Source of the DNA: an uncultured Ignavibacteriales bacterium
Lineage (GTDB): Bacteria > Bacteroidota > Ignavibacteria > Ignavibacteriales > Ignavibacteriaceae
Reading direction: 5' to 3'
Assembly: GCA_963749485.1 (NCBI GenBank)
Contig: CAVVMV010000006.1
Coordinates: 38,435-102,434 of the forward strand
DNA: 64,000 bases
Below are positions 32,001 to 41,000 of the stretch, in pieces. Made by a program: the position numbers. Numbering within the stretch: position 1 is the stretch's first letter; each line of letters begins with the position of its first letter.

Positions 32001-35000
32001 AGAATAAGGATAAAGTTTTCGATTTTGATAATGATCCAATCGATCTCTTAAAAGAAGATGGATGGATAACGGCTGATGGAACTACACTTGGAGCTGATAA
32101 CGGAATTGGATTAGCAGCAGCTTTAGCTGTCATAACCGATACTGAAGTTGTCCACGGACCAATCGAAATTTTATCTACAGTTGATGAAGAAACTGGTTTA
32201 ACTGGAGCAAATAATCTTGAACCGGGATTTATTACTGGAAAAATTATGTTAAATATGGATTCCGAAGAAGACGGTGCTTTTTATGTTGGTTGTGCCGGTG
32301 GAATTGATACTGTTGCATTAATGATGATTGAAACTGAACCTGTACCCAACGGAACAGCTGCATACGAACTTCTTGTTACAGGACTTAAAGGTGGACATTC
32401 AGGTTTGGATATTCAAACGGGTAGAGGTAATGCCATTAAAATTCTTGCAAGGGCTTTAAATAATTTAAATGAAGTTGGTTATTCTCTGGCAAAGGTTGAT
32501 GGTGGAAGTTTAAGAAATGCAATTCCCCGCGAGGCTGAAGCGATAATATTTTTAACCGCCGCTGGTGCAACCAAAGCAGAAGAATTAATTGAAGAGCTTC
32601 AAGGAAAAGTTTATAACGAATTTAAAACTCCTGATGGTGGTGTGAAAATAGAATTGAAGAAATCCAGCTCATCAATTGATACAGTTTACATAAACGCATT
32701 AAAAAACAGGATAGTTGACGCTTTACTAGCCGTACCACATGGTGTGATAGCGATGAGCCCTGATTTAGAAGGTCTAGTTGAAACTTCAACAAATCTTGCA
32801 ACAATTAAAATTGTGGATGATAAAATCGTGATTGGTACAAGCCAGCGCAGTTCTATAGAAAGTGCAAAAGATTTTATTTCAGAAAATGTTGCTGCTATTT
32901 TTAGGTTAGCAGGAAGCGACGTAAAAGCAGGCGATGGTTATCCAGGCTGGAAACCAAATATGGATTCTGAACTTCTTAAAGTTTCTAAAAAAGTTTTTCA
33001 AAATTTATTCAATAAAGAAGCAGAAATAAAAGCAATACACGCTGGTTTGGAATGTGGAATATTGGAAGGTAAAAATCCCGGTTTGGATATGATCTCATTT
33101 GGTCCAACAATCCAGGGTGCACATTCACCTGATGAAAAAATTAATATAGAAACTGTTGAAAAGTTTTACTTGCTGTTGAAAGGTATCTTGAAAGAGATTG
33201 CTGAGATGAAGTAAACCTGGTTTTACTATTAGGATAAAAAAATGCCCGCTAACTATGCGGGCATTTTAATTTTAGGGTCTATTTTTTAAATGACACATGT
33301 ATGGCAGGAACAATCGTCATAAATATCATCATAACCGTAATCAATTGTTAACTCGTCTCCGGCTTTAATTGCCATATCAGATACTAAAATTAATCCTCCG
33401 TTTTCATCCTCTTCAACTTCGCAGTTAAATTCACAATTATGGTTAATATATTTTATTTTTTTAGTATTTGCAGTATCAATGTAACAATCATCACCGTTCC
33501 AAAAAATGTACACATTATTTTCTTCTTCTTCCCGTCTTTCGCACTCATCGCCGGAAATAACGTCACCTTCTATGTTCATAATAACTTTATTTTTAGGAAT
33601 ATTTGCTGATGCAAAAATTCCGGAACCATGAATATTTGATCCTTTTACCACTACATATTTTTCGTAATTACTTTTTCGCATTATTTGTTACTATCTCCTT
33701 CTTTTCCATATAACTCTCGTATAAGTAAATGAATATATGAGTTTTCTGTTACAGGGTAAGTGTACTTAATACTTTCGTCTGGCGGGGGATTATCATAATC
33801 GTAACTGTAAATTTCTTTATTCATTATATTATAATATCGGACTTTTAATATCCCATATTTAACAGTTGTGAGATTTATTCCAAAAAGTGTTTTCGACCTA
33901 AACACCTCGCCTTCAAATCCATCAAAAGTCTTTGGTGGCCGGTGTACTTCTAAAATCCAGATATCAAATCTGTCCCCTTTAATAGTATCTAACCCGGAAG
34001 CATCGTACCATATCTTCTCGCCGGAATCTAAATTGAGCACTTTCCAGACATGTGTTTCATCAGTCTGACCAGAACTTACTACAGAACAGAACGCTATAAT
34101 AAGAAAGCAATAATATCCTTTTAACATAAATTTCCTTTAATTTTAAAGTTCTCGAACAAGTAGCATAACATAAATAAAAATAGATTAATAATATAGATCA
34201 ATAAGATATCACTTTTTATTCAGTTATTTAATGTACTTTTTTTGTTTAGATTTAAGCGCTAATAAAATTTGATTAGTGTATATTTTTATTTAAAAGAATA
34301 ATAAATCATCTTTTTATTTTTACATAAGATATACTTATTTTATAAGTACTAATATTAATCAACAATAGGAGAAGTTATGTACTCCAAAGCATTATTGATA
34401 ATTTCATTCTTGCTATTTACAATATTTCCTGCTCTAGCACAAAATGGAAATACTTATATAGGTGTAAAAGCTTGTGTAATGTGTCATAAATCTGAAAAGC
34501 AAGGTGAGCAGCTAAAGATATGGGAAGGAAGTAAACATGCCGGTGCCTACGAAACATTGAAAACTGAAGAGGCAAATAAAATAGCTAAAGAAAAGGGTTA
34601 CGAAACACCAGCAATTGAAACTGAAGATTGCCTGAAGTGCCATGCAGTGGGATATAATTTAGATGCATCTATTCTTGGTAAGAAATTTAAAGTTGAAGAT
34701 GGAGTTCAGTGCGAATCTTGCCACGGCCCAGGTTCTGGTTACAAAAAGAAAAGTATTATGAAGGATAGAGAAAAGTCTGTTGCAAATGGTTTGCTTGTTT
34801 ATGAAAACCCGGGTGAAGAATTATGTATAAATTGTCATAACGCAGAAAGTCCTACATACGTGGATTTTGTTTTTGAAGAAGCCTGGGAAAAGATAAAACA
34901 TCCAATACCTGGTAGTGAGTAAAATAGTATTATAGTATTTTGAAGTAAAGAATAAAACTGACTTATGAGAAAACTTCTACTATTTATTTTGTTGTTTGGG

Positions 35001-38000: not shown

Positions 38001-41000
38001 TTTAATTGATAATCAATTAGGGGCGATTATACCTTGTTCAACTTGCCATAATGTTCCCCAAAATTATTACGATCCGGGTCACATAGATAGCCCACTACCC
38101 GCTGAAGTTATATTTAACAACATAGCTATTTTAAATAATGGAGTTAATTCATCGTATGATTATTCTTCTGCTACATGCTCAAACACTTATTGTCATGGCA
38201 ATTGGGAGTTTTTAAAGGATTCCTCAATCAATCAATTTGCATATACTGATACCTCAATGAGAGGCAATCAATGTATCAGTTATTTTCAATCAGGTTGATG
38301 GAACACAGGCTCAGTGCGGCAGTTGTCATAATTTAGCTCCCGAAGGACACATAGCAAATCCGAATTGCAGTAATTGTCATACCTCCGTTGTTGATCCAAA
38401 TGGAAATATTATTGATCAGACAAAACATATTAACGGAATGAAAAACGTTTTTGGAAATTGAATTTAGTAAAAAATTCTTGATATGAAAGCCGCTCTTAGT
38501 GCGGCTTTTTTTATGAACTAATTCAACAAGCAATAATAAATTTGCAACAAGAGGGAAGCATTTTCAATTTTTTGAAGAGATCTTTTCTAAATTTAATGTT
38601 CTTATCATCTTTTAAATTGTATTCACTTGTTGTTGATGGTGAAATTTATTCGGTTGAATAGTATTTTACTGTGTAGTTATAATAAATCAAAAGATTTCTA
38701 AAATTTATTTATTTATTGGAATGAAGATGAAAAATAAAAGCTTTATTGTTTTACTAATTATACCAGCATTTATGTTGATGGGGAGCAAACTGTTTATAAA
38801 AGATTACCATCTGGAAAAATTAGATATACAAACTTCTCAACAAGATGAGTTTAATCTGCAGACTTCTGATAAAAAACTTGGTTCTTTTGTTCAGGATGGT
38901 AAAACATTCTTCCGGTTGTTCGCTCCCTCTGCCGAAAATGTAATGGTTGTTATATTTGAGCAACCCGAACAAACCCACGGTAATGAATTTGATATGATCA
39001 GAGATGAGAATGGTGTTTGGGAAGCAGCGCTGGATGGTGAGTTGTACGGTTCTTTCTATGGATATAGAATAAAACATACCGAAGTCCCGGGGATTGAAGA
39101 TATTATTTGCCTTGATCCCTACGCAAAGGCAGTAACAACTTTCAACACTTACTTTAGTCCTCGCAGGGCAATTGTAATTGATGAAGATAATTATGACTGG
39201 GAAGGCGATGAATGGATCAAGATGGATTGGCGCGATTTAATCATTTACGAAATGCATATTCGTGATATGACGGAGCATCCATCTTCAGGAGCAAATCAAA
39301 GAGGTACTTACAAGGGATTAATTGAAAAAGGTAAAACAGGTGGAATTGATTATTTAAAAGATCTTGGAGTTAATGCCGTTGAATTATTACCTGCGCAGGA
39401 ATTTGCAAATATTGAAATACCATTCAGGGATTCCTTAAACGGAAAGTTTAATACTTGGAATTCTTATGAACGTAATCATTGGGGATATATGACTGCAGCA
39501 TACTTTGCCCCCGAAGCATACTATAGTGAGAATGTTAGGCAAATAGAGTTGAACACCTGGAGCGGAAAAGATGCAAGTGCAGTGAACGATTTTAAGGATA
39601 TGGTTAAAGCATTTCACAAAGAAGGAATAGCCGTAATAATGGATGTGGTTTATAATCATATTTCAGAGTATGAACTGGGAAATCTTAAAGAGATTGATAA
39701 GCAATATTATTTCCGGTTGGATGAAGATGGTAATTATGTTGCTCAAAGTTACTGTGGAAATGATTTTAAAACAGAACGCCCGATGTCACGAAGATTAATT
39801 ATTGAAAGTGTTCTGTACTGGATGAAAGAATATCATATTGATGGTTTTCGATTTGACCTCGGGAAATTAATTGACTGGGAAACAATTGAAGAAATAATTC
39901 ACGAAGCACAAAAAATTAATCCGGATGTAATTTTTGTTTGCGAGCCCTGGGGAGGAGGATATGATCCCGCCGGATTTTCAGCACGCGGCTGGGGTGCATG
40001 GAACGATCAAATTAGAAACGGTATAAAAGGAGAAAATCCGTTTGATGGTCAGGGATGGATTTTTGGAAAGTGGTACGGTAATAATAATCCCGAAAGAATT
40101 AAAAGCTATGTAAATGGTACTCTTACCAAAGATAAACATGGACTTTTCAGGTCTGTCGGCAACATTCTGTAAATTATTTGGAATCACATGATGGTTACAC
40201 TTTAGGTGATTTTATTCGATTGGGTCTTGGTGATATTGATAAAGAACAGGTAATTGATGATCCAAACAAAAATATTAAACTAACAGAGCAGCAGCTAAAA
40301 CTAAATAAACTTGGTGCTTTATTCCTTTTTACTTCACGCGGAATTACTATGATATCTGAAGGGCAGGAATTTGCCCGCAGTAAAGTTATTGCATCAGGCA
40401 CCGATATCAGTGATCCTCATCAAGGTATGATTGATCATAACAGCTACGATAAGGATAATGAAACAAATTATATTAATTATGAGCATGCAAAAATTAATGA
40501 AGACCTGCTGAATTATTACAAGGGATTAATAAAACTTAGAAAAAAATATGAAGCATTTCGCAGGGCAGAATATGACCAGGTTAATTTTTTTGATGTAAAA
40601 GATAATCCTTTTGCAATCGGTTATTTGATGGAATATAAAGATGATACCTTCATTGTTTTATTTAATGCCGATTCAAAAATGATGAAGAGTTTTTGCTTCC
40701 TGATGGAGAGTGGAATGTTTTAGTAAATTCTGAAAATGCCGGAACAGAATCGCTGGGAAGTATTGATTCCAAAGTTAATCTTGCTCCTTCGACAGGAATG
40801 GTTTTGAAGAAAAAGTAAAAAATAATCGATGAGTAAATCCCTATTTATCAGGAAAAGGAGGAATTTAAATAAGATTCCGGATATTCCGATGAATCGGAAT
40901 TCCGGAATGACAGAAAAATATTTACTTATCAATTCAGTTTAAATATTTTCCAACCAATTGCCGGTACATCGAGTATGAGTTCATCATTAATTATCCTGTA

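Follow-up and report, generated by a model that had tools for sequence, protein, structure and literature searches.

A predicted porin-cytochrome operon in an uncultured Ignavibacteriaceae bacterium, orthologous to the Ignavibacterium album cluster IALB_1840-1837

Shi, Fredrickson and Zachara (2014) placed Ignavibacterium album among the organisms with porin-cytochrome (pcc) gene clusters (PMC4245776). Its orthologues were sought by BLAST with the Geobacter Omb, Oma and Omc proteins at E<0.01, and the resulting cluster comprises IALB_1840, a predicted periplasmic pcc-associated cytochrome; IALB_1839, a porin-like protein; IALB_1838, a 400-aa protein with 14 haems, termed the largest Pcc periplasmic cytochrome; and IALB_1837, an outer-membrane cytochrome whose motifs are atypical. 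The same paper notes that the pair from I. album is no more than a distant relative of every other group (PMC4245776). Geobacter-like or OmbB-like porin-cytochrome complexes (PCCs) have been reported in Ignavibacteria of the iron-rich Chocolate Pots springs (PMC6137239), of an aquifer-derived anode community (PMC7399161) and of a humic lake (PMC6344600). Here we describe a four-gene operon (g1 to g4) in contig CAVVMV010000006.1 of an uncultured Ignavibacteriaceae bacterium; the window, meaning the whole stretch of DNA analysed, is 64 kb long. Judged by gene order and protein identity, the operon is an orthologue of IALB_1840-1837, already catalogued in 2014, and we give a probability of roughly 0.7 to the prediction that it encodes a Pcc-type trans-outer-membrane electron conduit.

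The four genes are co-directional on the plus strand, with intergenic gaps of 42, 4 and 29 nt in the open reading frame (ORF) listing. The features are as follows:

34128-34376, plus strand: AT-rich intergenic spacer, presumed promoter region (from base composition)
34377-34922, plus strand: g1, 181 aa (from the ORF listing)
34965-36236, plus strand: g2, 423 aa (from the ORF listing)
36241-37434, plus strand: g3, 397 aa (from the ORF listing)
37464-38461, plus strand: g4, read in three successive frames, 331 aa after repair
38485-38512, plus strand: intrinsic terminator closing the operon, with a 9-bp GC-rich stem at 38485-38509 and a T-run to 38512

A motif scan counts 4 CxxCH haem-binding motifs in g1, none in g2 and 14 in g3. 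This density of motifs is far above what chance would give, since a six-frame count over the window finds 28 CxxCH motifs, 25 of them inside the operon, and shuffled windows yield only 1-6 in total. The initial annotation of this DNA had described four co-directional genes with these gaps, a 249-bp AT-rich region upstream, a clear terminator downstream and the haem-motif counts of the four products; all of this stands, for g4 once its frame is repaired.

The same four genes occur in the same order in I. album JCM 16511 as IALB_1840, IALB_1839, IALB_1838 and IALB_1837, themselves predicted only. An I. album metagenome-assembled genome (MAG; locus L043) encodes a 179-aa 4-haem protein, the barrel, a 400-aa 14-haem protein and a 325-aa protein with 6 CxxCH and 1 CxxxxCH motifs, which are 65, 52, 66 and 38% identical to g1, g2, g3 and g4, respectively. 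Gene order, sizes, haem counts and identity thus all agree with membership of the IALB_1840-1837 group (L043; PMC4245776). The operon differs from the I. album cluster in coming from another, uncultured Ignavibacteriaceae species and in its g4, which is the longer allele with 7 CxxCH and 2 CxxxxCH motifs (7+2) rather than 6+1 and which, as assembled, carries two frameshifts.

A first search with g2 returned more than 1000 homologues, the best of them 88-94% identical and, where named, from Ignavibacteriaceae MAGs; an exact-sequence look-up of the barrel protein matched no record. Scanning one genome per GTDB species, we found 41 loci, all in Ignavibacteriales (Ignavibacteriaceae, Ignavibacterium and one Melioribacteraceae), that of the I. 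album MAG among them. Essentially all loci that extend far enough show the same array: first the 4-haem protein (about 180 aa), then the barrel (about 423 aa), the 14-haem protein (about 400 aa) and a 6+1 or 7+2 cytochrome. Moreover, g2 and g3 are adjacent in every one of the 41 that reaches that far. Close relatives also keep the upstream synteny (electron transfer flavoprotein, ClpS, M20 peptidase, SET-domain protein and a hypothetical protein); the genes downstream of the operon vary among them.

The definition of a Pcc system (Liu 2014; Shi 2014) asks for a haem-free barrel with a signal peptide, which describes g2; for an adjacent periplasmic multihaem cytochrome with 5-14 CxxCH motifs, which describes g3, though its periplasmic location is only putative because its N-terminal segment shows no clear cleavage site; and for a lipoprotein multihaem cytochrome in the cluster, which g4 supplies after removal of two insertions.

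Of these components, the barrel has a confident structural model. The AlphaFold2 model of g2, built from a 29-sequence alignment, has a mean predicted local distance difference test (pLDDT) score of 82.3 and a predicted TM-score (pTM) of 0.71. It is all beta: DSSP assigns 24 strands of at least 6 residues, with short turns between them and no non-strand stretch longer than 16-17 aa, and the model has neither a plug nor a helical domain. A Foldseek search of the PDB returned only outer-membrane barrels (E about 1e-10), the top query-normalised TM-scores, 0.51-0.54, being those of the 24-strand FimD/PapC ushers; scores were 0.43-0.47 for the 18-strand AlgE/ChiP and 0.30-0.36 for 16-strand porins. 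No family in Pfam or NCBIfam matched g2, apart from a sub-threshold hit to LptD. Its signal peptide ends ...AVGYS|QN. With the usual geometry formula for barrels, we calculate that 24 strands correspond to a C-alpha diameter of roughly 4.4 nm, comparable to that of the 26-strand MtrB, which sheathes MtrA. We therefore predict that g2, the IALB_1839 orthologue, is a large plug-less outer-membrane beta-barrel of about 24 strands. This accords with the earlier description of a 423-aa signal-peptide protein that looked barrel-like and had no haem site, and the objection that the barrel might prove too narrow for a cytochrome is not borne out by the predicted strand count.

The start of g3 lies 4 nt past the end of g2, and across 25 loci the identities of the two proteins co-vary with r=0.93. 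In a 21-sequence alignment (A3), for which the measured GC content of the source genomes spans 35% (the window) to 65% (L049), all 14 CxxCH motifs of g3 are invariant, as are 10 further His residues. High-GC homologues differ from the g3 of Ignavibacteriaceae in showing an AxA signal-peptidase site. The domains of g3 are of the Cytochrome_C7/c3 type (Pfam), and the nearest solved relatives in a PDB sequence search are the pentahaem ActA of Alternative Complex III (ACIII) and Geobacter c7-type proteins. We propose that g3, the IALB_1838 orthologue, would lie on the periplasmic side and serve as a haem wire inserted in the g2 barrel.

The first gene product, g1, matches Pfam Cytochrome_C554 (E=4.5e-19) and has Nitrosomonas cytochrome c554 (1bvb, E=2e-9) as its closest relative in a PDB sequence search. 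It has a classical signal peptide ending ...FPALA|QNG and is found at most orthologous loci. It is thus a secreted c554-like tetrahaem cytochrome by its sequence features, the orthologue of IALB_1840 and a putative periplasmic shuttle. For the complex as a whole, no relative of solved structure came up in the PDB sequence searches, which gave only c7/ACIII-type domains for g3 and the cytochrome c554 relative of g1.

The remaining gene, g4, has a lipobox (LIAAG|C) and is read in frame segments 37464-37952, 37930-38295 and 38261-38461. Relative to the intact orthologue at L035, with which it shares 85% DNA identity over the whole gene, it carries two 1-nt insertions, one of A (37929/37930) and one of C (38269). 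With these removed, it encodes 331 aa with 7 CxxCH and 2 CxxxxCH motifs and matches the NCBIfam CxxxxCH/CxxCH domain TIGR01904 (residues 224-293, 35.7 bits against a cutoff of 27), the match spanning the second frameshift; no relative was found among PDB sequences. The gene is intact in L002 and L035 (341-347 aa) and in L003 (287 aa). We propose that g4, the orthologue of IALB_1837, is a lipoprotein multihaem cytochrome that would be exposed at the cell surface as the terminal reductase.

Is g4 then broken in the cell or only in the assembly? That it is a true pseudogene of a decaying system, in which the barrel and 14-haem core works alone or not at all, we consider unlikely. Two independent frameshifts in one gene, the second outside any homopolymer, would fit such decay. 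So would the argument of Shi et al. that a partner with 12-14 haems could cross the membrane in the absence of any outer cytochrome (PMC4245776), and so would the distant loci L050 and L046, which have no lipoprotein cytochrome directly after the barrel-cytochrome pair. Against this, each frame segment is free of stops, the protein after repair has 87% identity with the intact orthologue, and the repaired frame regains a scored domain. Moreover, at least four unrelated genes of the window are split likewise, including the normally essential PBP2, which is divided between its dimerisation and transpeptidase domains (23216-23752 / 23850-25022). The others are a cation diffusion facilitator (CDF) transporter (10829-11831, minus strand), a CBM48/GH13 enzyme directly downstream of the operon (38721-40172 / 40178-40723) and a TonB-dependent receptor, which lies in three or more pieces (43857-47847). 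This pattern suggests an indel-rich assembly, probably from long reads, rather than pseudogenes. Since PBP2 and the other three genes are split in the same way, the g4 frameshifts are most likely assembly errors and the native operon is probably intact; we judge a true pseudogene the less likely explanation. The first description of this locus was thus right that the surface component is interrupted as sequenced, and the interruption most likely says little about its biology.

The last gene of the operon varies more than the others. Set against L005, its nearest genome, the window has a nucleotide identity of about 88% in g1-g3; the value falls to 23-70% from about 37555 to 38300 and recovers at the 3′ end of g4. 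Compared with L035, it is about 75% over g1-g3 and 86-90% within g4. Across the 25 loci, mean identity is 45% for g4 and about 65% for the other genes, and the g2-g4 identity correlation is 0.45, versus 0.93 for g2-g3. Two length classes of g4 exist, with 6+1 and 7+2 motifs (CxxCH + CxxxxCH). Given the drop in identity against L005, the gain against L035 and the low g2-g4 correlation, the mature part of g4 seems to be exchanged between lineages as a recombining cassette.

Other outer components differ as well. In many relatives (L009-L014, L016, L019 and L021, at about 9400-10730 in locus coordinates) a fifth gene directly follows g4 and encodes a cytochrome of about 370 aa, within a range of about 340-385 aa, with 5 CxxCH and 1 CxxxxCH; the window lacks this gene, and its terminator comes straight after g4. 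In the Melioribacteraceae MAG (L027) the position of g4 is taken by a 674-aa cytochrome with 14 CxxCH and 3 CxxxxCH motifs, and the gene for a 16-haem protein of 821 aa is located upstream of that for the 4-haem protein, so that the outer components are expanded (2786-5251 and 8473-10497).

Homologues of the barrel reach well beyond the Ignavibacteria. A profile search of 1.84 billion representatives at E <= 1e-3 gave 338 clusters at 50% identity, nearly all full-length members being 400-460 aa, and the named distant members belong to KSB1, Marinimicrobia/Fidelibacterota, Latescibacteria and Zixibacteria. No Geobacter protein is among the named relatives in these 338 clusters, of which only some members are named. 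A profile of the 20 most distant members found 24 proteins, all from the FCB group or unnamed lineages, and no Geobacter OmbB. In four distant contexts (GC 43-65%) a cytochrome of 331-407 aa directly follows the barrel, with 14 CxxCH motifs or, in the Marinimicrobia case L050, 12. These contexts are evidence, from sequence comparison, that the barrel and 14-haem core is retained far outside the Ignavibacteria.

The surroundings of the distant pairs are also informative. In L046 the neighbours are a NapC/NirT-type multihaem protein of 674 aa and a cytochrome of 717 aa that bears a type IX secretion system (T9SS) sorting tail; L048 has a 10-haem lipoprotein; and L049 has a CbcL-like protein with 11 haems and a fused cytochrome b, together with a NapC/NirT-like protein, a lipoprotein with 9 haems, and ResB/CcsA. 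These neighbours lie at 3529-5682 in L046 and at 1-5420 (minus strand) and 9684-11842 in L049. The surroundings at L046 and L049, both from high-GC lineages, look like complete candidate extracellular electron transfer (EET) pathways. In none of the seven contexts inspected does a nitrite or sulfite reductase, or another catalytic subunit, stand beside the barrel; a constant association with such reductases would have pointed to a purely periplasmic role, and the homologous clusters instead adjoin cytochromes and quinol-dehydrogenase-like proteins. One can envision that the barrel and 14-haem pair is a conduit family of its own, spread over the FCB superphylum (Ignavibacteria, KSB1, Marinimicrobia/Fidelibacterota, Latescibacteria and Zixibacteria) and some high-GC lineages, with an origin independent of Geobacter Pcc and Shewanella Mtr, a fixed core and a surface cytochrome exchanged by recombination; we offer this tentatively, as a possibility that has less than even odds. 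The exchanged outer parts of such a family may include the 6+1 or 7+2 lipoprotein alleles, the T9SS-exported cytochromes and the extra 5+1-haem genes.

How might the operon work? What we observe is the content of the operon, its motifs, the fold predicted for the barrel, the degree of conservation and the genes nearby. We imagine that quinol-derived electrons would reach the periplasm from an inner-membrane dehydrogenase encoded outside the window, and that soluble g1 would ferry them across the periplasm. They would then enter g3, whose haem chain, sheathed by g2, would cross the outer membrane, and exit via g4 at the cell surface. There they would pass to insoluble or large acceptors: oxides of Fe(III)/Mn(IV), humics, partner cells or electrodes. 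We infer the localisation of the proteins, the insertion of g3 in g2, the surface exposure of g4 and the direction of flow.

The conduit reading is preferred because the barrel is large, confidently predicted and free of a plug or long constricting loops, because g2 and g3 are adjacent and co-vary around 14 invariant haem motifs, and because g4 combines a lipobox with a TIGR01904 domain scoring above the NCBIfam cutoff. It is preferred also because the distant clusters are flanked by NapC/NirT-type, cytochrome-b-fused and T9SS-tail cytochromes and by no catalytic reductases, and because the I. album cluster has been classed as pcc and OmbB-like PCCs have been reported in Ignavibacteria. The barrel model, gene order and context thus support the initial annotation in its proposal of a trans-outer-membrane electron conduit with a small periplasmic shuttle.

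Several points weigh against this reading. The published identities to the Geobacter proteins are low, 19% for IALB_1839-OmbB, 24% for IALB_1838-OmaB and 10% for IALB_1837-OmcB (PMC4245776, supplementary tables), and the 19% and 24% values lie in the twilight zone. A literature search with the IALB locus tags returned the 2014 paper only and found no experimental work on the cluster. Within the 64-kb window there are no other cytochrome genes and no inner-membrane quinol dehydrogenase. The AlphaFold2 model of g3, from a 30-sequence alignment, is unusable (mean pLDDT 47.6, with residues 153-397 below 50). The N-terminal hydrophobic segment of g3, MRLKSIYILLITVSIIFLAFFSK (residues 1-23, window 36241-36310), is without an obvious AxA site and could be an uncleaved membrane anchor rather than a cleaved signal. 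Lastly, the direction of electron flow is not readable from sequence.

This last point allows for the same conduit running in reverse, so that the periplasm would receive electrons from outside, in the manner of MtoAB/PioAB, the donor being extracellular Fe(II), a cathode or a syntrophic partner. Porin-cytochrome modules are reversible in principle, Ignavibacteriaceae are reported in MAG surveys to bear Cyc2-like candidate Fe(II) oxidases as well (PMC6344600), and one Ignavibacteriales system has been labelled "mto-like" (PMC6137239). However, MtoAB/PioAB lack an extracellular cytochrome (PMC6344600), whereas a lipoprotein cytochrome is present at nearly every locus here; those relatives that are in culture live as organoheterotrophs, and Melioribacter is an Fe(III) reducer (PMC6137239); and the distant clusters adjoin quinol dehydrogenases, CbcL-like and NapC/NirT-like, of the kind typical for outward EET. 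We regard reversed flow as rather improbable. Outward flow is favoured because of the surface cytochrome, the heterotrophic relatives, Fe(III) reduction by Melioribacter and the quinol-dehydrogenase-like neighbours in the distant clusters.

Least probable is that g2 is an ordinary substrate porin and that the cytochromes reduce a soluble periplasmic substrate (chelated metal, selenite/tellurite or sulfur species): g2 does lack a family assignment in Pfam and NCBIfam, the folds nearest to it include AlgE, ChiP and Occ, which are substrate channels, and selenite/tellurite reduction is the annotation of some Geobacter Ext clusters (by NCBIfam name), but its approximately 24 strands with short loops and neither plug nor constriction loop are unlike the 16-18-strand specific porins, it adjoins an invariant 14-haem protein across phyla, the lipoprotein cytochrome has a Geobacter outer-membrane-type domain, and no catalytic reductase, rhodanese or molybdoenzyme adjoins the operon in the seven contexts inspected, so that a porin feeding a periplasmic reductase was rejected.

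Returning to the Pcc-type operon itself, its borders can be described in some detail. The 249-bp spacer upstream (34128-34376) has a GC content of 17.7%, versus 35.4% for the window, and sits between a divergent minus-strand gene pair and g1, whose Shine-Dalgarno sequence, AGGAGA, lies 7 nt 5′ of its ATG. Sigma-70-like matches in the spacer are no more frequent than in shuffles, so that no promoter is established, and the spacer contains no Bacteroidetes-type TAnnTTTG motif. The divergent pair (33286-34127, minus strand) encodes a 131-aa SET-domain protein and a 148-aa hypothetical secreted protein, and is syntenic with the operon in many relatives at 44-93% identity.

At the other end, the terminator RNA reads GAAAGCCGC-UCUUAGU-GCGGCUUUU, followed by further U. 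Its minimum free energy is -15.2 kcal/mol, versus -8.05 for shuffles (z = -2.87). The hairpin is kept in L005 (GCCGCTC/GAGCGGC) and L035 (ACCGCT/AGCGGT) with both sides of the stem changed. A consensus terminator scanner did not list the 38485-38512 hairpin.

Ignavibacteria abound in aquifers, sludge, anode biofilms and springs rich in iron, and the conserved operon is their main candidate EET route. The operon here adds one orthologue to a cluster catalogued since 2014. Beyond that, the analysis adds a confident model of a barrel of about 24 strands, the occurrence of the core pair beyond the Ignavibacteria, and an apparent swapping of the surface cytochrome between lineages; these results leave the current picture unchanged. 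The suggestion in the initial annotation that this might be a distinct variant therefore holds in that its counts differ from those of the characterised systems, and fails as a claim of novelty, since the I. album cluster was already described (PMC4245776).

Among the closest known systems are OmbB-OmaB-OmcB and OmbC-OmaC-OmcC of Geobacter sulfurreducens (Liu et al. 2014; summarised in PMC4245776), with the same order of barrel, periplasmic cytochrome and lipoprotein cytochrome; a comparison with published pcc clusters accordingly places g2, g3 and g4 in the ombB-omaB-omcB order. The Geobacter barrels are similar in length to g2, and g4 has a Geobacter-type CxxxxCH/CxxCH domain. The differences lie in the inner partner, with 14 haems here and 8 in Geobacter Pcc; in the outer cytochrome, with 7+2 motifs here and 12 there; and in the added 4-haem c554-like gene. 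In addition, the model of g2, at about 24 strands, exceeds the 18-22 predicted earlier for Pcc porins.

In haem number, the two-gene pcc clusters of Anaeromyxobacter species and of Candidatus Kuenenia stuttgartiensis are also similar, pairing a barrel with a 12-14-haem periplasmic cytochrome of 338-344 aa that has been proposed to span the membrane alone (PMC4245776). Unlike the operon here, they are without an outer-membrane cytochrome, and their identities to IALB_1839/1838 are 8-18% (PMC4245776).

Shewanella MtrCAB and the MtoAB/PioAB systems share the logic of a wide plug-less barrel around a haem wire, and MtrCAB also has an outer lipoprotein cytochrome. No member of the MtrB/PioB family in Pfam matched g2; g3 did not match TIGR03508/DmsE, nor MtrA of 6R2Q at E<=1, and it has 14 haems as against 10 in the Mtr partner. 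Without family matches and with a 14-haem g3, the operon does not belong to the MtrAB(C)/MtoAB/PioAB group, and an Mtr-family assignment was rejected. MtrB is about 650-700 aa long, compared with 423 aa for g2, and in the MtrCAB structure (6R2Q) it forms a 26-strand barrel with MtrA inserted. At about 24 strands, the predicted g2 barrel is nearer in size to MtrB than earlier Pcc predictions suggested.

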